Positions 13,322-58,341 of a stretch of 64,000 nucleotides of DNA are shown here, in pieces. Source of the DNA: Escherichia coli (lineage in GTDB: Bacteria > Pseudomonadota > Gammaproteobacteria > Enterobacterales > Enterobacteriaceae). Location of the stretch: the NCBI RefSeq assembly GCF_013122565.1, contig NZ_CP053258.1; one strand, 5' to 3'. A program made the translations under genes and the position numbers. The first letter of the stretch is position 1; each line of letters opens with the position of its first letter. The notes under the pieces are model-generated. The model was given only the letters and a program-made list of their open reading frames with translations. It had not been told where the DNA came from and made no database searches.

Positions 13322-14797
13322 TTAAATATGATGAATAATCACTTTGTTGCCCCCCTCGCTTTTCGCTTCGCGTAAGGCTTTATCTGCTTCCGTCATGACA
13401 AGCGAGATATTACGCGTGTCACCCGTTGAAAAAACCGTGCCAATACTGATGGTCATTTGTTCAGGAACATCATATCTGTTACTAAAGCCGGTCAGGAGTT
13501 CGACATTTTTACGCATACGTTCCGCAATGATTTTTGCCTGGGCACTATTGAGTTCGGTAAATAGCAAGCCAAACACCTCACCCTCCAGTCGCGCTAAAAT
13601 ATCATCGGGGCGGATGCTTTGCTGGATAATATCGACAATTGAAACCAGCACTTTATCACCCACACGATGTCCCCATTGGGCATTGATACGTTTGAACTGA
13701 TTAATATCAACCAGCATGACACAGAAGTCCTTAACAACAGGTCGCGACAATAATGACTCTACGCTGTTGAAAAAGTAGCGCCGATTATAAATATTGGTCA
13801 GCACATCATGAACTGCCAGTTTGCTGGAGAGTTGCAGTTCCTGAAAAATGTTATAAATCAGAAAAGACACAACAAACAGTTTACTGGAGACTTCAATCCC
13901 GCGACTGATATACCAGATGGTGTAATTATACTCATCCAGAGTCAGTAGAAGTAAGTTACAGCATAGCGATGCCAGACATAATAATGCTATTAACGGCCAT
14001 AGTTCGCTGGCTAATCGTGTACGCATGATAATAAAGAACAGTAAAAATGCCCACAAACAAACCAATATTTTTGTATAGTTGATTCCCCAGGTCGCAGTAT
14101 GGTTGTCCGGACAGTAATCGACGACATACAAAGAATAGTCAGCGTTATAACTGCTCAGATTGTGTGCCAGAAGGGGAAAAACTAAAAAAGGGATCAGCGC
14201 CAGCAACAGGATTGCCATTTTTTTCTTATTGTTGTCAAGGATGTTGTCTTTTCCATAACAAAAGAGCGCCAGCGAGGTTAAACAAATAAAACTGAGTTGG
14301 CGGAAAATATAGAAAATAGAAACATCATTCGACTTTGTCTGAATCAGTGTACTGTCGCTGATAGGTTTATGGATAACAACAATAGTTTCAACTAAATAGA
14401 TAAGGCCACTTAAAAACGCAAGACTTAAAATGAGTGTTGGTAGAATTTGTTTGTTAGTGAAATATTTCATTAACATGAAAAGAAAAATGATGGCGTTAAG
14501 GAAAAACAAAGCCACAACGACCATCAGATAATTCATCTGTGGGATGAGTTTTACATTCGTGTTTTCGTTATATAAGGTGGTGATGCAAAATAAAATTAAC
14601 GTCAGCAATAAACTGAAAATAAAAAAGCTTTGAGCTTTTAATTTTTGTGTACCCATAGAAACCATAAAAAGGAGAGCAATATGAGTGCTGGATTTTATTG
14701 ATGGCAGAGATATATAGTTTTGACCAGGATCAATTTTCGTTAACGATAAAAAATATTTAAAGAATAACCCCAGGGAAATACGTGTTGACCGAATCAT
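13322..14797 (-). CDS. cdgI: Membrane GGDEF-domain protein, degenerate active site
   Basis: 491 aa; very AT-rich; multi-TM N-terminus; GGDEF-like domain with EGEVF in place of GGDEF. Confidence 0.88.
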   Translation of the reverse strand: MIRSTRISLGLFFKYFLSLTKIDPGQNYISLPSIKSSTHIALLFMVSMGTQKLKAQSFFIFSLLLTLILFCITTLYNENTNVKLIPQMNYLMVVVALFFLNAIIFLFMLMKYFTNKQILPTLILSLAFLSGLIYLVETIVVIHKPISDSTLIQTKSNDVSIFYIFRQLSFICLTSLALFCYGKDNILDNNKKKMAILLLALIPFLVFPLLAHNLSSYNADYSLYVVDYCPDNHTATWGINYTKILVCLWAFLLFFIIMRTRLASELWPLIALLCLASLCCNLLLLTLDEYNYTIWYISRGIEVSSKLFVVSFLIYNIFQELQLSSKLAVHDVLTNIYNRRYFFNSVESLLSRPVVKDFCVMLVDINQFKRINAQWGHRVGDKVLVSIVDIIQQSIRPDDILARLEGEVFGLLFTELNSAQAKIIAERMRKNVELLTGFSNRYDVPEQMTISIGTVFSTGDTRNISLVMTEADKALREAKSEGGNKVIIHHI

Positions 14798-30002: not shown

Positions 30003-31964
30003 ATGCGGTTGTTTATTGCCGAAAAACCGAGTCTGGCGCGTGCCATTGCTGATGTCCTGCCCAAACCGCACCGGAAAGGCGATGGCTTTATTGAGTGCGG
30101 TAATGGTCAGGTGGTGACCTGGTGTATCGGTCACCTGCTTGAGCAGGCGCAGCCAGACGCCTACGACAGCCGCTATGCGCGCTGGAATCTTGCGGATTTG
30201 CCGATTGTCCCGGAAAAGTGGCAATTACAGCCCCGACCCTCCGTGACCAAACAACTTAATGTCATCAAACGCTTTTTGCATGAAGCCAGCGAAATCGTTC
30301 ATGCCGGGGACCCGGATCGTGAAGGGCAATTGCTGGTGGATGAAGTGCTGGACTATCTGCAACTGGCACCGGAAAAGCGCCAGCAGGTGCAGCGTTGCTT
30401 GATAAACGACCTGAACCCGCAGGCGGTTGAGCGGGCGATCGACCGTCTTCGTTCCAACAGTGAGTTTGTACCGCTGTGCGTTTCTGCGCTGGCGCGAGCG
30501 CGTGCCGACTGGCTGTACGGCATCAATATGACCCGTGCGTATACCATTCTCGGTCGCAATGCCGGTTATCAGGGCGTACTTTCCGTGGGACGCGTGCAGA
30601 CACCCGTGCTCGGGCTGGTGGTGCGCCGCGATGAAGAGATTGAAAACTTCGTGGCGAAAGACTTCTTTGAAGTCAAAGCACATATCGTGACACCTGCCGA
30701 TGAGCGGTTTACCGCTATCTGGCAACCGAGCGAAGCGTGTGAACCGTACCAGGATGAAGAAGGGCGCTTGTTACATCGTCCACTGGCGGAGCATGTGGTT
30801 AACCGCATTAGTGGTCAACCGGCTATTGTCACCAGCTATAACGATAAACGGGAATCAGAATCCGCGCCGCTGCCTTTTTCGCTTTCGGCGTTGCAGATTG
30901 AAGCGGCAAAACGCTTTGGTCTGAGCGCGCAGAACGTGCTTGATATCTGCCAGAAGCTGTACGAAACGCACAAGCTAATCACTTATCCGCGTTCCGATTG
31001 TCGCTATTTGCCAGAAGAACATTTTGCCGGACGCCACGCGGTGATGAATGCCATCAGCGTTCATGCACCGGGCTTGTTACCGCAGCCGGTGGTAGATCCG
31101 AATATGCGCAACCGCTGTTGGGATGACAAAAAGGTCGATGCGCACCACGCCATCATCCCGACCGCACGGAGTTCTGCGATCAACCTGACGGAGAACGAAG
31201 CGAAGGTCTATAACCTGATTGCCCGTCAGTACTTGATGCAGTTCTGCCCGGATGCGGTCTTCCGCAAGTGTGTTATCGAACTGGACATTGCCAAAGGCAA
31301 ATTTGTCGCTAAAGCCCGTTTTCTTGCTGAAGCAGGCTGGCGCACGCTGTTAGGCAGCAAAGAGCGCGATGAAGAAAACGACGGCACGCCATTGCCTGTG
31401 GTGGCGAAAGGCGATGAGTTGCTGTGTGAAAAAGGTGAAGTGGTAGAGCGGCAAACCCAGCCGCCGCGCCATTTTACCGATGCAACACTGCTTTCGGCGA
31501 TGACCGGGATCGCGCGCTTTGTACAGGACAAAGATCTGAAAAAGATCCTCCGTGCTACCGATGGTCTGGGGACAGAAGCAACGCGTGCCGGGATTATTGA
31601 ACTGCTGTTCAAGCGTGGCTTCCTGACCAAAAAAGGGCGCTATATCCACTCTACCGACGCCGGAAAAGCGTTATTCCATTCGCTGCCGGAGATGGCGACG
31701 CGACCGGACATGACCGCTCACTGGGAATCGGTGCTGACGCAAATCAGCGAAAAGCAGTGTCGCTACCAGGACTTTATGCAGCCGCTGGTGGGGACGCTAT
31801 ATCAGCTTATTGATCAAGCCAAACGTACTCCGGTGCGGCAGTTTCGCGGCATTGTGGCTCCGGGCAGTGGTGGCAGTGCTGATAAGAAAAAGGCTGCAAC
31901 GCGTAAACGTAGTGCGAAAAAAAGTCCGCCAGCAGATGAAGCCGGAAGCGGGGCGATAGCGTAA
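30003..31964 (+). CDS. topB: DNA topoisomerase III
   Basis: 653 aa [20 protein letters not shown], Toprim and topo IA domains. Confidence 0.92.
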
Positions 31965-32091
31965 GCAAGCGAATCTTTCGTGCTATTCGAGTCATATTCT
32001 GAAATATCCAGCGGATCAAGAAAATTCGTTGGATATTTTTTTCGCATGGATAAAATTATCGCCTCTAAAGTATGTAATAACAGGGAATGTG

Positions 32092-33123
32092 ATGAAAAAA
32101 GTTTTATTACAAAACCATCCAGGGAGTGAAAAGTATTCTTTTAACGGCTGGGAAATATTTAATATTAATTTAGACCAGGTGATTAAAGAAAATAAACCTA
32201 TGCTGCTTTGTAAGTGGGGGTTTTATATAACCTGTACTTTCGCTGCACTGTTAGTTTGTGCAGGCCTTACAGCAAATGGTTTAAGTGATAAAGGCAAAGT
32301 GACCGCTGGCTATGCTTTTCTTTATCTTTTAATTATGGCGGCTTTGGTTATTCGAGCTGGCTTCAGGGCAAAAAAAGAACAGTTACACTATTATAAGGCA
32401 AAGGGTATTGAGCCGCTGAGTGAAGAAAAGTTGCAGGCATTGCGGCTGATTGCACCCAATCGCTTCTATAACCAACAGTGGTCTGAATCGCTTGAATTTT
32501 GGCCACGGAAGCCTGCATTGGGAACGGATACTTTTCGCTATCATGTTTTACGTTTTGAGTCTGTCGGAGTGACTCGCCAGCGTCGCAAGTCTTTGGATGA
32601 CAGCTGGGGGATAGTCGATAGCCAAAGTTATATCGCTTTAATGGAATATTTTCTTTCAGGTGAGCATGGCTCAAATGCATTTAAAGAACACATGGAAGAA
32701 AATCCGCAAGAAGTGATTGCGATGTTAAGTAAAGTTAAGGATTTTCCTGAGGATTATCTTTATGACTGTACCATCCGTCGAATTGATAAGTCATCTCCAC
32801 GCTTGATATGGGCTGCCGAGATAGCATGGATAATAGGCTTAACCTGCTCGACATACCAGAATGGAACGATTGAGGAAGATCTGGCCTGGCACTATATTTT
32901 GGCTGCCTCGAAAAAAGCCTATGAACTCTTTGAGAGCGAAGAAGAGTTCCATCGAAACAGTTTGATGGGGTCATGGTACTGGCATGCTTTCTGCTATCGA
33001 ATGAAACTCATGGACGCTGAGCTGGAAGAAGGTCATCTCTACGACGTGGAAATTCTGGAACATTACCGAAAGAAGTGTCGTTGGCCCATTAAAAACCTTC
33101 CCTGGGGCACATCCTCAAACTGA
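32092..33123 (+). CDS. ynjI: DUF1266 inner-membrane protein
   Basis: AT-rich ORF; start ATG at 32092 or GTG at 32089. Confidence 0.8.
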   Translation: MKKVLLQNHPGSEKYSFNGWEIFNINLDQVIKENKPMLLCKWGFYITCTFAALLVCAGLTANGLSDKGKVTAGYAFLYLLIMAALVIRAGFRAKKEQLHYYKAKGIEPLSEEKLQALRLIAPNRFYNQQWSESLEFWPRKPALGTDTFRYHVLRFESVGVTRQRRKSLDDSWGIVDSQSYIALMEYFLSGEHGSNAFKEHMEENPQEVIAMLSKVKDFPEDYLYDCTIRRIDKSSPRLIWAAEIAWIIGLTCSTYQNGTIEEDLAWHYILAASKKAYELFESEEEFHRNSLMGSWYWHAFCYRMKLMDAELEEGHLYDVEILEHYRKKCRWPIKNLPWGTSSN

Positions 33124-33129
33124 CCTCTT

Positions 33130-33225
33130 TGCCGGGGGCGCTGCGCTTGCCCGGCCTACATTAGAGCGTAACTGCAATGAATCGTGCCCATTTGTAGGCT
33201 GATAAGCGTAGCGCCATCAGGCATT
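33130..33225. repeat. REP (BIME) element
   Basis: gcccggcctaca ... tgtaggctgataagcgtagcgccatcaggc, classic REP consensus. Confidence 0.7.
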
Positions 33226-33231
33226 TACAAC

Positions 33232-34575
33232 TTAAATCACACCCTGCGCCAGCATCGCATCGGCAACCTTCACAAAACCGGCAATGTTCGCGCCCTGCAC
33301 GTAGTTGGTTTGCTCACCTTCACCACCATGCTCAACACAGGCATGGTGGATATCCAGCATGATGTGATGCAAACGTGCGTCAACTTTCTCGGCTTTCCAG
33401 CCCAGGCGCGCAGCGTTTTGCGCCATTTCAAGGCCTGACGTTGCTACACCGCCAGCATTAGCCGCTTTACCCGGTGCAAACAGTACGCCTGCCTGCTGGA
33501 ACAGTTCAGTCGCTTCGATGGTGGTCGGCATATTTGCCCCTTCGGCGACGGCTTTAACGCCATTGGCGATAAGCTGATGCGCGGCGTCAACATCCAGTTC
33601 GTTCTGGGTGGCGCAAGGCAGGGCGATATCAACCGGTACAGACCACGGCTGTTGGCCTTCGAGATAGACCAGACCAAATTCTTTGGCGTAATCTGCCACT
33701 CGACCATCGCGGCTGGCTTTGATTTCGATAAGACGTGCCAGTTTCTCTTTCGTGAATCCGCTTTCATCAACTACAGTGCCGCTGGAGTCTGACGCAGTGA
33801 TCACACGAGCACCAAATTCCATCGCTTTTTCGATAGCGTACTGGGCGACGTTGCCGGAGCCAGAAACGGAAACGCGCATCCCTTCAAAACCCATACCGTG
33901 GCGTTTTAGCATTGCTTCTGTGAAATAAACCAGACCGTAGCCGGTAGCTTCCGGGCGAATAAGACTACCGCCAAATGAAAGGCCCTTACCGGTGAAGACG
34001 CAGGCGGTATTGTTGGAGAGCTTTTTCATCATCCCCGCCATAAAGCCGACTTCACGACCACCAACCCCGATATCACCTGCCGGAACGTCGGTATCCGCGC
34101 CCAGGTGACGATACAGTTCAGTCATCAGCGCCTGGCAAAAACGCATCACTTCACCTTCACTTTTTCCTTTCGGATCGAAATCGCTGCCGCCTTTACCACC
34201 GCCCATCGGCAGAGTAGTCAGGGCATTTTTGAAGGTTTGTTCGAAGCCGAGGAATTTAAGAATGGAGAGGTTAACTGACGGATGGAAGCGCATACCGCCT
34301 TTGTACGGGCCGATGGCAGAGCTGAACTGCACACGCCATGCACGGTTGACCTGTACCTGATTGCGATCATCAACCCATACCACGCGAAACTGGATCACGC
34401 GCTCCGGTTCAACCAGACGCTCCAGTAATGACATCTGGCGATATTTTGGATTTTGTTCAAGAAAAGGCCAGAGTGTGGTCATTACTTCACGAACGGCTTG
34501 CGCGAACTCGGTTTGATTCGGGTCGCGCTTTTGGACATGGTTGAGGAATGACTCCAGAGAATATGTCTGATCCAT
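33232..34575 (-). CDS. gdhA: NADP-specific glutamate dehydrogenase
   Basis: 447 aa MDQTYSLESFLNHVQKRDP... Confidence 0.95.
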   Translation of the reverse strand: MDQTYSLESFLNHVQKRDPNQTEFAQAVREVMTTLWPFLEQNPKYRQMSLLERLVEPERVIQFRVVWVDDRNQVQVNRAWRVQFSSAIGPYKGGMRFHPSVNLSILKFLGFEQTFKNALTTLPMGGGKGGSDFDPKGKSEGEVMRFCQALMTELYRHLGADTDVPAGDIGVGGREVGFMAGMMKKLSNNTACVFTGKGLSFGGSLIRPEATGYGLVYFTEAMLKRHGMGFEGMRVSVSGSGNVAQYAIEKAMEFGARVITASDSSGTVVDESGFTKEKLARLIEIKASRDGRVADYAKEFGLVYLEGQQPWSVPVDIALPCATQNELDVDAAHQLIANGVKAVAEGANMPTTIEATELFQQAGVLFAPGKAANAGGVATSGLEMAQNAARLGWKAEKVDARLHHIMLDIHHACVEHGGEGEQTNYVQGANIAGFVKVADAMLAQGVI

Positions 34576-34810
34576 AGATATAAAACCCTTATATATTAAT
34601 ACGATTGTGCTTATGTTGTTTATGTCATGTGCTTTTGCAGTTTTCGACTATACCATCAAGAATGTGACGGTAAGCAAGAAAAAAATGACCCAGGAAAGCA
34701 AATTAATAACGAGAGTAATCTCATAACCAAATGCGATAACTCAGACGCTAAAGTTTTGCCGCCCGGCTACCGTTATCAGTAGCAGAGACAATAACGTTAA
34801 GGAGTTCCCT

Positions 34811-35083
34811 GTGAGTCGAGCATTGTTCGCCGTAGTATTAGCATTTCCATTTATTGCACTGGCTAACCCGCATTATCGTCCGGACGTGGAGGTTAACGTA
34901 CCGCCAGAAGTGTTCAGTTCAGGCGGGCAGTCAGCGCAGCCCTGTACTCAGTGCTGCGTTTATCAGGATAAAAATTATTCTGAAGGAGCGGTAATTAAAG
35001 CCGAGGGAATACTGCTGCAATGCCAGCGTGATGACAAAACCCTTAGCACTAATCCGCTGGTCTGGCGGCGCGTAAAGCCATAA
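34811..35083 (+). CDS. ynjH: DUF1496 secreted protein
   Basis: 90 aa with signal peptide. Confidence 0.8.
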   Translation: MSRALFAVVLAFPFIALANPHYRPDVEVNVPPEVFSSGGQSAQPCTQCCVYQDKNYSEGAVIKAEGILLQCQRDDKTLSTNPLVWRRVKP

Positions 35084-35542: not shown

Positions 35543-36163
35543 GTGCTAGACCGCCATCTTCATCCCCGGATTAAACCGTTGTTGCATCAGTGCGTGCGGG
35601 TTCTTGATAAACCGGGCATTACGCCAGATGGTTTAACATTAGTGGGATTTGCCATCGGCGTGCTGGCTCTGCCGTTTCTGGCTCTGGGCTGGTATCTGGC
35701 GGCGCTAGTCGTCATTTTGTTGAATCGTCTGCTTGATGGTCTGGATGGCGCACTGGCGCGGCGCAGAGGGCTTACCGACGCGGGCGGCTTTCTCGATATT
35801 TCTCTCGATTTTCTCTTTTACGCGCTGGTGCCGTTTGGTTTTATTCTTGCTGCACCGGAGCAAAATGCGCTGGCAGGCGGCTGGCTGCTGTTTGCGTTTA
35901 TCGGCACGGGCAGCAGTTTTCTCGCTTTTGCTGCGCTGGCGGCGAAACATCAGATTGATAATCCCGGTTATGCGCATAAATCGTTTTATTATCTGGGCGG
36001 GTTAACCGAAGGCAGCGAGACGATTTTGCTATTTGTTCTGAGTTGCCTCTTTCCGACGTGTTTTCCGTGGTTTGCATGGGTATTTGGTGCGTTGTGCTGG
36101 ATGACGACCTTTACGCGGGTGTGGAGTGGGTATCTGACGCTGAAGTCGCTCCAGCGTCAGTAA
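35543..36163 (+). CDS. ynjF: CDP-alcohol phosphatidyltransferase-family membrane protein
   Basis: 206 aa from GTG 5 nt after taaggag SD; motif DGxxAR...G. Confidence 0.85.
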   Translation: MLDRHLHPRIKPLLHQCVRVLDKPGITPDGLTLVGFAIGVLALPFLALGWYLAALVVILLNRLLDGLDGALARRRGLTDAGGFLDISLDFLFYALVPFGFILAAPEQNALAGGWLLFAFIGTGSSFLAFAALAAKHQIDNPGYAHKSFYYLGGLTEGSETILLFVLSCLFPTCFPWFAWVFGALCWMTTFTRVWSGYLTLKSLQRQ

Positions 36164-57498: not shown

Positions 57499-58341
57499 AT
57501 GATGCAGCCAGTGATTAACGCGCCGGAAATTGCCACTGCCCGGGAACAGCAGTTGTTTAATGGCAAAAACTTCCATGTGTTTATCTATAACAAAACTGAG
57601 AGTATCAGCGGACTGCATCAGCACGACTATTATGAATTTACTCTGGTATTAACCGGGCGTTATTTCCAGGAGATTAACGGTAAGCGCGTTTTACTGGAAC
57701 GGGGCGATTTTGTTTTTATTCCGTTAGGTTCGCACCATCAAAGCTTTTATGAGTTTGGTGCCACGCGCATATTGAACGTTGGGATCAGTAAACGCTTTTT
57801 TGAGCAGCATTACCTGCCGTTGTTGCCTTATTGCTTTGTAGCTTCGCAGGTATACCGGACCAATAACGCTTTTCTCACCTATATGGAAACAGTGATTTCT
57901 TCATTGAATTTCCGCGAAACAGGGCTGGAAGAGTTTGTTGAGATGGTTACTTTTTATGTCATTAACCGTTTACGTCATTACCGCGAAGAACAGGTGATTG
58001 ATGATGTACCGCAGTGGCTGAAAAGTACGGTAGAAAAGATGCATGATAAAGAGCAGTTTAGTGAATCGGCGCTGGAGAATATGGTGACGTTGTCAGCCAA
58101 ATCACAGGAATATTTGACGCGAGCGACCCAACGATATTATGGCAAAACGCCAATGCAGATTATTAATGAAATCCGTATTAATTTTGCCAAAAAACAACTG
58201 GAAATGACTAACTATTCAGTGACGGACATTGCGTTTGAGGCCGGTTATAGTAGCCCGAGTTTGTTTATTAAAACGTTTAAGAAATTAACGTCCTTTACGC
58301 CTAAGAGCTATCGTAAGAAATTGACTGAATTTAATCAGTAA
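57499..58341 (+). CDS. chbR: AraC-family dual regulator of chb operon
   Basis: 280 aa, cupin plus AraC HTH. Confidence 0.9.

Follow-up and report, generated by a model that had tools for sequence, protein, structure and literature searches.

The stretch of DNA analysed here (hereafter the window) comprises 64 kb of the Escherichia coli contig NZ_CP053258.1, in which the gene ynjI lies between topB and gdhA, two genes that converge on its slot. The 5' neighbor topB (DNA topoisomerase III; 30003..31964, plus strand) and the 3' neighbor gdhA (NADP-specific glutamate dehydrogenase; 33232..34575, minus strand) are both GC-normal and were assigned from their open reading frames (ORFs) and from the annotation of near-identical loci and of a near-identical strain, respectively. 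The coding sequence of ynjI (32092..33123, plus strand; 343 amino acids and a stop codon) runs from an ATG at 32092 to a stop codon at 33121–33123, exactly the coordinates given in the preliminary description, which was made from the sequence alone. The same frame was annotated by RefSeq in a near-identical strain, and the predicted protein matched WP_171459303.1 at 100%. The earlier naming of the gene as ynjI was borne out by the NCBIfam equivalog NF008480/PRK11380 (473.9 bits, the curated cut-off being 386), in which residues 1–342 covered positions 1–346 of the 353 in the profile, and by the Pfam domain DUF1266; the order topB-ynjI-gdhA also matched the annotated locus of the K-12-derived strain MC1061. 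A spurious ORF or pseudogene was ruled out, as the frame was intact in every lineage, with dN/dS of at most 0.13 and a structural model of pLDDT 92. No RNA family was matched across 31800–33400.

Compared with YnjI of K-12 (b1762, 346 amino acids, DUF1266), the gene of the window has the same slot, strand, and start codon, and the proteins share one architecture and align without gaps over 342 residues. The C-terminus in the window is three residues shorter, however, and identity is only 66% for the protein and about 68% for DNA from codon 47 onward. The two genes represent different alleles, designated A (the common, K-12-type allele) and B (the window allele).

The hydropathy of YnjI agreed with the previous reading of a membrane protein, which is a prediction. 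The Kyte-Doolittle mean over 19 residues reached 1.6 solely at centres 46–55 and 77–84 and at none past residue 110, and these two segments would form a transmembrane hairpin (32200..32364, plus strand) consisting of TM1 (about residues 37–60), an 11-residue loop, and TM2 (about residues 72–91). The AlphaFold2 model was all-alpha (pLDDT 92.2, pTM 0.89), with helices at residues 36–60 and 66–104. Five K/R residues follow within 20 residues after TM2, and an N-in/C-in topology is predicted from the positive-inside rule. For YnjI of K-12, an inner-membrane location is given in the literature on the basis of a global topology study (PMC3950696). Ahead of the hairpin, codons 5–24 (LQNHPGSEKYSFNGWEIFN; 32104..32163, plus strand) encode a conserved family motif, of which Q7 and N8 were at least 90% conserved among 61 full-length relatives (19–32% identity); alleles A and B showed no non-synonymous difference in codons 1–24. 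A DUF1266 domain (PF06889; residues 167–338; 32590..33105, plus strand), predicted to be cytoplasmic, was recognized at E = 1.9e-19 (70.9 bits against a gathering threshold of 27) over the whole 175-position profile. A sequence search of solved structures gave no match below E = 0.49, and none of the PADLOC-DB 2.0 defence models matched YnjI at E up to 1.

The same Pfam family includes YbeR and YbeU of E. coli, soluble proteins of 235 amino acids from the hscC-djlC-djlB cluster, whose region is low in GC (0.42–0.48) like ynjI. Unlike YnjI, these proteins carry neither a membrane anchor nor the QNHPG N-terminus, and while ybeR-djlB and ybeU-djlC each overlap by 4 nt beside hscC, ynjI stands alone. 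In BLASTP searches, YnjI had no pairwise similarity to YbeU and YbeR (E above 1), and the contigs of five distant YnjI homologs held no conserved neighbor. Considering these two results, the J-protein/Hsp70 analogy has shared Pfam membership as its sole basis. By weak analogy with YbeR and YbeU, which are coupled to tail-anchored J-proteins, YnjI may be a membrane-tethered DUF1266 module at the cytoplasmic membrane face. A large RNase_H_2/AAA helicase was observed near distant YnjI homologs on two high-GC contigs, probably from related organisms. Another DUF1266 gene, RS03510 of strain 042, is strongly repressed by H-NS, and its locus tag suggests that it lies near the ybeR/ybeU cluster.

The region upstream of ynjI was 97.6% identical to that of K-12, and the core of the activator site and the two hexamers of the promoter are shared. 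The putative promoter is of the sigma-70 type (TTGGAT, 16 nt, TAAAAT; 32029..32056, plus strand), and its hexamers did not vary among the nine sequences compared, which represent three genera. A scan with the consensus promoter missed it, because its -35 hexamer matches only three of six consensus positions, and returned matches at chance level inside the gene. Further upstream, TATTCTGA (31995..32002, plus strand) matches the wwTTCykA centre of the activator site for BglJ-RcsB that was defined by mutagenesis in K-12 (PMC3950696), and the block AGTCAnATTCTGAAATATCCAG at this site was identical from E. coli through Pseudocitrobacter. From the centre of the core to the putative start site downstream, the distance is about 65 nt; in K-12, the corresponding distance is 65–68 nt (PMC3950696). 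In that strain the promoter is activated by BglJ-RcsB, expression rises strongly with constitutive bglJ and moderately in an hns stpA mutant, and basal expression is very low, an activator being required (PMC3950696). Given the conserved promoter and activator site, ynjI in the window is most likely near-silent, with a moderate part played by H-NS/StpA, and switched on by BglJ-RcsB, an analogy to H-NS and activation data that concern the K-12 allele only. Other AT-rich accessory genes silenced by H-NS, such as bgl and leuO-regulated loci, resemble ynjI in their AT-richness, patchiness, and low codon adaptation, and in an anti-silencing type of activation, as exerted on ynjI by BglJ-RcsB in K-12. 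Unlike these typical cases, ynjI is one gene, long resident in one slot, without mobility genes, with a published H-NS effect that is only moderate and a low GC content that looks stationary instead of transient.

REP elements are extragenic imperfect palindromes of about 30–35 nt that end in (C/A)GGCCTAC and often occur as inverted pairs. Where a REP element had been noticed after ynjI, we found two REP-like inverted units forming a BIME-like pair (33131..33223): REP1 at 33131–33160 (GCCGGGGGCGCTGCGCTTGCCCGGCCTACA) and REP2 at 33193–33223 (TGCCTGATGGCGCTACGCTTATCAGCCTACA on the minus strand). Both lie inside the 108-nt spacer between the stop codons of ynjI and gdhA, and the pair folds into a single, long hairpin (-47.7 kcal/mol, z = -4.2). 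The 14-nt 3' core CTTATCMGGCCTAC had five matches in the 64-kb window against 0.43 expected, one of them at 33146–33159, while a full-length REP consensus pattern had none, the internal spacing of that pattern being probably wrong. As an extragenic inverted pair, the units agree with the REP/BIME description. The spacer occurred at 1–6 places per genome (median 1), was found complete in 3,471 E. coli genomes, a number about equal to that of ynjI carriers, and was conserved into Pseudocitrobacter. K-12 shares the REP pair, with a 17-nt insert before REP1 that the window lacks. In strain S3, an IS621 was inserted in the spacer. The pair is likely to serve both ynjI and gdhA, which converge on it, as a bidirectional 3' hairpin, and termination and stabilisation of the ynjI transcript are its probable roles.

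The preliminary description had pictured ynjI as an AT-rich gene between GC-normal topB and gdhA, and our measurements agreed. The GC content of ynjI was 0.422 (0.413 in K-12), compared with 0.552 in topB, 0.533 in gdhA, and 0.513 ± 0.038 in the other 49 ORFs of the window (z = -2.4, third lowest of 50). At third codon positions (GC3) it was 0.416 against 0.543 ± 0.049 (z = -2.6), the lowest of the 50 ORFs, and at first positions (GC1) 0.48 against 0.58, indicating that amino-acid usage is shifted too. In a sliding window, GC was 0.54–0.56 in topB, fell to as low as 0.34 at 32000–32299, stayed at 0.39–0.46 until about 33050, and returned to 0.50–0.57 in gdhA. The rare codons reported for ynjI held up only in part. 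The adaptation index referenced to the window (0.629 vs. 0.710 ± 0.041, fourth lowest) and the CAI with Sharp-Li weights (0.227 vs. 0.32 ± 0.10) were low, but the seven classic rare codons (5.2% vs. 3.2 ± 1.9%) were not in significant excess (z = 1.1). The codon usage of ynjI is only mildly atypical.

This composition was not peculiar to the window. All syntenic copies of ynjI had a GC content of 0.39–0.44, against 0.52–0.61 in their flanks. Distant members of the YnjI family (22–32% identity) in high-GC hosts were encoded at a host-like GC of 0.70–0.74, so the protein itself does not force low GC, and amino-acid composition was ruled out as its cause. Polarised changes in ynjI numbered 59 from AT to GC and 48 from GC to AT (43 and 30 at third positions). 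The low GC looks near-stationary across the enterobacterial lineages, and since the counts lean slightly toward AT to GC, slow amelioration may be in progress. Its persistence could be due to weak expression without codon selection, or to H-NS silencing, acting on an originally foreign gene. Another explanation is that ynjI is a native, chronically silent gene at an AT-biased mutational equilibrium. The roughly balanced changes and the low adaptation index fit this idea, as do the very low basal expression and the need for an activator in K-12 (PMC3950696), and so does the GC3 of ynjI, which was 0.40–0.43 in both E. coli and Pseudocitrobacter-group hosts despite a flank GC3 of 0.59 and 0.66–0.67, respectively. 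Nevertheless, other ORFs of the window that are probably weakly expressed keep a GC3 near 0.5, GC1 is low as well, and the distribution of ynjI (see below) is much patchier than would be expected of an ordinary native gene. Such an equilibrium could also go together with an old foreign origin instead of replacing it. We regard it as unlikely, although still deserving some weight.

The phylogenetic distribution of ynjI proved to be very narrow and patchy. A scan of one genome per species, using two short peptide patterns, returned three ynjI loci among the representatives of 100,044 species, of which one was a contaminant; divergent or strain-variable copies could be missed with such short patterns and a single genome per species. 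Of the complete genomes of E. coli, 5,426 in all, a ynjI-like sequence was present in 3,501 and absent from 1,925 (35%). Based on the nucleotide identity matrix and a neighbor-joining (NJ) tree, the syntenic copies fell into clean A and B clades and two deeper syntenic lineages. As regards mobility, no integrase, transposase, tRNA, or direct-repeat border was found at ynjI, which is a single ORF between housekeeping genes. True plasmid or phage copies were likewise not found: the only "plasmid" match was a 4.8-Mb chromosome, the only "phage" match was a 1.9-kb unannotated fragment, which leaves no plasmid or phage vector for the allele among the matches.

Do these patterns indicate a recent horizontal acquisition, in which the low GC of a donor has not yet been ameliorated? 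The lowest GC3 of the window would suit this scenario, together with the absence of the gene from 35% of E. coli and from nearly all scanned species representatives, the partial repression of K-12 ynjI by H-NS/StpA (PMC3950696), and the host-like GC of the distant relatives, beside which the enterobacterial clade looks compositionally foreign. However, at least four deeply diverged lineages, spread over several genera, have the gene in this slot, always at a GC of 0.39–0.44. The A-type copies of E. coli and Pseudocitrobacter differ by a dS of 1.32–1.48, in step with selD, topB, and gdhA (1.3–1.9), which points to ancient residence; the polarised substitutions (59 vs. 48) are roughly balanced; and none of the integrase, tRNA, direct-repeat, plasmid, or phage traces of a recent arrival were found. 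A recent acquisition is largely refuted and improbable. The earlier suggestion that ynjI is old is sustained by its shared slot in four deeply diverged syntenic lineages and by the flank-like divergence of allele A. That it was horizontally acquired is true insofar as lateral exchange took place, with B as a xenologous replacement, but no island or carrier was identified, and the low GC does not mark a fresh arrival from outside.

The E. coli genomes fell into three classes at the topB-gdhA slot. Allele A was carried by about 3,487 genomes, with DNA about 70–71% identical to ynjI of the window, while allele B was found in 12 genomes (0.2% of complete E. coli) at 98.3–98.9% DNA identity. Most genomes without ynjI (1,495 of 1,925) shared one common topB-REP-gdhA junction, and the null haplotype had its own divergent topB 3' end. 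The slot therefore shows a three-state polymorphism (A, B, and null). In strain ET201, the ynjI allele was a B-A-B mosaic. Alleles A and B were 66% identical in protein, with 34% of the residues differing, whereas their flanks were about 98% identical (97.7% and 98.0% for the last 600 nt of topB and gdhA, respectively). Relative to the K-12-type sequence, the window differed at 8 of 392 sites upstream, 296 of 894 in the body, and 4 of 269 downstream; dense differences began abruptly at 32121 and ended abruptly at 33127, delimiting a divergent allelic tract (32121..33127) in which about 33% of the sites differ. This tract is the rare B allele, which must have been placed here by homologous recombination. 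The B alleles within E. coli were a dS of 0.044 apart, and thus the arrival of B cannot have been very recent.

Outside E. coli, the sequence nearest to the window allele was D782_2571 of strain FGI 57, an Enterobacteriaceae bacterium related to Pseudocitrobacter, whose selD, topB, and gdhA were 92–94% identical to those of P. vendiensis. D782_2571 occupies the same slot with the same REP pair and was 88% identical to the window allele in protein and, from codon 47, 89.6% in DNA. The flanks of FGI 57, in contrast, were only 81–83% identical to those of the window, and at synonymous sites ynjI was about three times less diverged (dS 0.40–0.44) than they were (1.05–1.33). Because the flanks are far more diverged than ynjI, the histories of the allele and of the chromosome differ. 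Likewise, since the closest relative of B lies in another genus and is three times nearer than the flanks at synonymous sites, a crossing of genera by homologous replacement is indicated. Together with the absence of the gene from 35% of E. coli, this proximity makes the distribution of ynjI incongruent with vertical descent. The dimorphism of A and B was also present in the Pseudocitrobacter group, and in the tree the B lineage was the outgroup to the A-type copies of K-12, Escherichia sp. MOD1-EC7003, and Pseudocitrobacter. As shown by the tree and the synonymous distances, the B lineage split from A before Escherichia and Pseudocitrobacter diverged and moved between these genera later. A donor of B was not found, and FGI 57, too, may have received the allele from elsewhere.

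The preliminary description had also offered fast evolution as a reason for the unusual appearance of ynjI, and change in place under positive or diversifying selection is indeed what the 34% residue difference between E. coli strains with 98% identical flanks might first suggest, as might a dN that exceeds the values of the neighboring genes two- to threefold. This explanation fails on several grounds. Synonymous sites of A and B are saturated within E. coli (pS 0.77–0.83), while the flank dS is 0.06–0.10, a difference beyond the reach of selection in place; in the Pseudocitrobacter group the dS is 1.55–1.87 for A versus B and 0.43–0.48 for the flanks, and between the two groups the flanks differ by 1.05–1.9. 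The dN/dS of ynjI was 0.08–0.13, and allele A, at a dS of 1.32 and a dN/dS of about 0.08 to its Pseudocitrobacter ortholog, evolves at the synonymous rate of its flanks. The B sequence recurs in a second genus with a DNA identity of 89.6%, and the tract has abrupt edges at conserved sequence. We consider fast evolution in place refuted, with hardly any probability left to it. The frame of ynjI is intact and purifying selection acts on it, and its 34% residue gap to K-12 ynjI reflects deep allelic ancestry rather than rapid change in place, a reading based on the saturated synonymous sites set against the low flank dS. Owing to this saturation, the data only set a bound on how deep the A/B split lies.

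Three deep haplotypes at one locus, the null type with its divergent topB 3' end among them, raise the possibility of a long-lived polymorphism balanced by frequency-dependent selection, with YnjI, for example, as the target of a phage or membrane toxin, or as protection against it. The sharing of alleles between genera would then be a side effect. The dS of 0.044 among the B alleles of E. coli, the mosaic of ET201, and the recurrence of the A/B dimorphism in the Pseudocitrobacter group would fit such selection. However, a share of just 0.2% of complete E. coli is odd for a balanced allele, and with E. coli and FGI 57 three times closer in B than in the flanks, retention across species does not by itself account for the data, which call for transfer. 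Neither a defence-model match nor a defence-island context was found in E. coli, and there was no overall signal of diversifying selection. This reading is very improbable. In a wider version, which we also doubt but hold to be somewhat less remote, the topB-gdhA slot would be a long-lived multi-allelic locus (A, B, null, and at least two deep lineages elsewhere) traded across genera by frequency-dependent selection, in which the membrane-anchored YnjI would be a specificity determinant in antagonism, such as the target of a phage or of a toxin acting on membranes or a protection from either, and the low GC would itself be selected for H-NS control.

Taken together, we favor, with a probability of roughly 0.6, the explanation that ynjI is an old accessory gene and that the window carries its rare B allele, introduced by cross-genus replacement, with the predicted architecture and regulation as proposed above. 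According to this explanation, ynjI would have been in the topB-gdhA slot before several enterobacterial genera diverged, and its low GC (0.39–0.44) would have been kept in all of them. Its product would be an inner-membrane protein in which a conserved N-terminal QNHPG motif is followed by a hairpin anchor of two helices and by an all-alpha DUF1266 domain facing the cytoplasm. The B allele, about 1.0 kb in length (32121–33127), would have been swapped in by homologous recombination, its edges being marked by the conserved 5' end of ynjI on one side and the REP pair on the other.

The gene itself is ordinary and annotated, and its AT-richness is a familiar mark of an H-NS-type accessory gene; what is new is the three states of the slot and the rare, divergent B allele. 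The locus is a clean natural case of the allelic replacement of a single gene, with breakpoints at conserved sequence, and could serve as a marker for recombination studies. It also calls for caution in pangenome pipelines, in which YnjI will be split into separate "genes" at 66% identity. A GC of about 0.42, kept across saturated synonymous divergence next to flanks with a GC3 of 0.59–0.67, is a small data point against equating low GC with recent acquisition. For work on DUF1266, YnjI offers a compact family that combines the QNHPG motif, a transmembrane hairpin, and the domain in a high-confidence model without a solved structural relative.

The selD-topB region preceding ynjI (32092-33123, + strand; gene order sppA-ydjA-selD-topB-ynjI-gdhA-ynjH-nudG-ynjF-ynjE) was 95-99% identical to 5,255 of the 5,426 complete E. 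coli genomes; the top match reached 98.6%. Sliding GC was 0.54-0.56 in topB, dipped to 0.34 at 32000-32299, ran at 0.39-0.46 across the ynjI frame and returned to 0.50-0.57 in gdhA. The compositional anomaly of the preliminary description, an AT-rich gene between GC-normal neighbors, was therefore real: whole-gene GC was 0.422, against 0.552 in topB and 0.533 in gdhA. Compared with the 49 other long ORFs of the window, ynjI had a low GC (0.513 ± 0.038 elsewhere; z = -2.4) and the lowest GC3 of all 50 (0.416 vs. 0.543 ± 0.049). Its window-referenced codon index (0.629 vs. 0.710 ± 0.041) and its CAI (0.227 vs. 0.32 ± 0.10, using Sharp-Li weights) were each the fourth lowest. The rare codons also ascribed to the gene did not stand out, since the seven classic ones made up 5.2% of ynjI and 3.2 ± 1.9% of the other ORFs (z = 1.1, not significant). 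Two more ORFs, at 13322-14797 (-) and 57499-58341 (+), matched ynjI in AT-richness, one for a 491-aa GGDEF-domain protein (GC 0.386, the window minimum) and the other for the ChbR regulator (0.415). The divergent gdhA-ynjH intergenic region (34400-34999) was AT-rich too (0.39-0.46), and is probably ordinary promoter DNA.

We found three states of the topB-gdhA slot in E. coli, which is the main new result. ynjI-like sequence was present in 3,501 of the 5,426 complete genomes, but 3,487 of these matches, representing the common K-12-type allele A, were only about 70-71% identical to the window copy at the DNA level. The window's version (allele B) occurred in only 12 genomes (98.3-98.9% identical). 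The A and B proteins shared 66% identity, gap-free over 342 residues. The remaining 1,925 genomes lacked ynjI; in 1,495 of them a 76-nt spacer holding a single REP separated topB from gdhA, and topB itself was divergent over its final ~250 nt. This junction was found in the B2 strains NRG 857C and BEN2908, among others. In ynjI-less S22EC (L003 4740-5001, corresponding to window ~31730-31964), identity at the topB 3' end was 88.6% in the final 600 nt and ~66% in the final 100 nt, TopB was two residues shorter, and the one REP of the spacer differed from the window's. The ynjI family itself is already known and annotated; in the searchable literature we found no description of this deep polymorphism, of its sharing across genera or of a stationary low GC. 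The finding is modest and well explained.

All close ynjI homologs found lay in the same slot: in a Hadza-gut metagenome contig (L004), Pseudocitrobacter vendiensis (L008), Escherichia sp. MOD1-EC7003 (L009), two short contigs from other genera (L006, L007) and Enterobacteriaceae bacterium FGI 57 (L013), whose selD, topB and gdhA were 92-94% identical to those of P. vendiensis. A 926-nt contig filed under "Bacillus coahuilensis m4-4" (L010, NZ_ABFU01000109.1) was 100% identical along its entire length to K-12-type ynjI and the REP spacer; it almost certainly reflects contamination of the draft assembly with E. coli DNA. In both the nucleotide identity matrix and the NJ tree, A and B formed a clade each, with two further lineages branching more deeply. 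By Nei-Gojobori estimates, A and B within E. coli were saturated in ynjI (pS 0.77-0.83) with flank dS of 0.06-0.10; within the Pseudocitrobacter group, A and B differed by dS 1.55-1.87 in ynjI and 0.43-0.48 in the flanks. Rapid evolution in place, by which B would have diverged where it stands, was ruled out by this synonymous saturation next to flanks that are 98% identical. Nor was the suggested fast evolution of ynjI supported: the gene was under purifying selection throughout (dN/dS 0.08-0.13), and A alleles of E. coli and the Pseudocitrobacter group differed by dS 1.32-1.48, with flanks at 1.3-1.9. Because its dS matches the flanks, allele A appears to have descended vertically in the two genera. 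In contrast, B of E. coli and B of FGI 57 differed by only 0.40-0.44 in ynjI, about three times less than the flanks (1.05-1.33); in pS the difference amounted to roughly eight standard errors. Allele B has therefore moved between genera after their split; simple retention of an ancestral polymorphism was ruled out by the same comparison. The view of ynjI as an old and laterally exchanged gene was supported. Since B alleles within E. coli differed by dS 0.044, the import was not very recent.

The divergent tract had sharp edges. Compared with a K-12-type strain, the window showed 8 differences in 392 positions at 31700-32091, 296 in 894 at 32230-33123 and 4 in 269 at 33132-33400; dense differences began at 32121 and ended at 33127, immediately before the first REP-like unit. 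The B carrier ET201 (L019 1363-1500, corresponding to window 32092-32229) was a B-A-B mosaic within codons 1-46, with an A-type patch at codons 25-36, so that recombination between the two alleles has taken place within E. coli. No ynjI carried by a plasmid or phage was found in plasmid and phage collections, which leaves homologous recombination of chromosomal DNA as the simplest mechanism; B would have entered by crossovers at the conserved ynjI 5' end and the REP pair. PLSDB NZ_OL790696.1, a 4.8-Mb E. coli replicon filed as a plasmid, is evidently a chromosome. At the ynjF 3' end (35917-36116), identity dropped to 0.79-0.89 against K-12-type and LHM10-1 loci and was 0.96-0.98 against S22EC, apparently a further short recombination tract whose history differed.

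The REP element reported after ynjI was confirmed as two inverted REP-like units (33131-33160 and 33193-33223) inside the 108-nt spacer 3' of the stop codon, together forming a single long hairpin (-47.7 kcal/mol, z = -4.2); the window held five occurrences of the REP 3' core, where chance would give 0.43. In the B-allele E. coli strain S3 (L020 2574-3554), an IS621 (IS110-family) transposase gene was inserted in this spacer (window 33124-33231). IS621 targets REP sequences, so its presence there would fit the REP assignment. The same convergent gdhA/ynjI spacer, which holds the REP pair without an obvious promoter role, gave a strong sigma-S RNA polymerase binding peak in K-12 by genomic SELEX (intensity 79.5; PMC5493296).

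The K-12 ynjI promoter is activated by BglJ-RcsB through a site centered 65-68 nt upstream of the start, whose mutation abolished activation, and expression rose moderately in an hns stpA mutant (PMC3950696). The window's upstream region was 97.6% identical to K-12, with TATTCTGA at 31995-32002 matching the published wwTTCykA core and a putative promoter, TTGGAT-16 nt-TAAAAT, at 32029-32056. That core and both promoter blocks were unchanged in nine sequences from three genera, and this sequence invariance argues for conserved, activator-dependent expression.

The name ynjI was correct: the 343-aa product, identical to WP_171459303.1, was a full-length match to the NCBIfam YnjI equivalog (474 bits; cut-off 386) and matched Pfam DUF1266 at residues 167-338 (E = 1.9e-19). 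Two hydrophobic helices (centers at residues 46-55 and 77-84) are separated by an 11-residue loop and followed by a cluster of five K/R, with no further hydrophobic helix downstream; from the positive-inside rule we infer a hairpin anchor of N-in/C-in topology, whose C-terminal domain would lie in the cytoplasm. When 1.84 billion representative proteins were searched exhaustively with HMMER, only 87 relatives reached E < 1e-3. Some 60 were full-length (330-400 aa, 19-32% identity) and had in common an almost invariant Q-N(-H-P-G) motif at the N-terminus, REQxxYY after the second helix, W130 and WGI. No conserved gene neighbors were found on the contigs of distant relatives. [quoted passage not shown] In MC1061 (L022 23267-28219), this cluster is low in GC (0.42-0.48) and both DUF1266 proteins are soluble. 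YnjI showed no pairwise similarity to YbeR or YbeU, and the Pfam-level tie is the sole functional lead. As a weak guess by analogy, YnjI may be a membrane-tethered DUF1266 module working on the cytoplasmic side of the inner membrane.

Finally, all syntenic ynjI copies had a GC of 0.39-0.44 between flanks of 0.52-0.61, both in hosts with a topB GC3 of 0.59 and in those with 0.66-0.67. Polarized changes in the A lineages were nearly balanced (AT>GC 59 and GC>AT 48 at all sites; 43 and 30 at third positions), so composition is near-stationary, with slow amelioration at most. Distant family members had the GC of their hosts, reaching 0.70-0.74 in high-GC contigs; the protein sequence therefore does not impose a low GC. 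Given its presence in every syntenic copy and its near-stationarity, low GC is a long-standing trait of ynjI across its enterobacterial clade and is compatible with an ancient foreign origin and AT-richness retained afterwards. It may persist because weak expression lifts selection on codons or, alternatively, may be tied to H-NS control.
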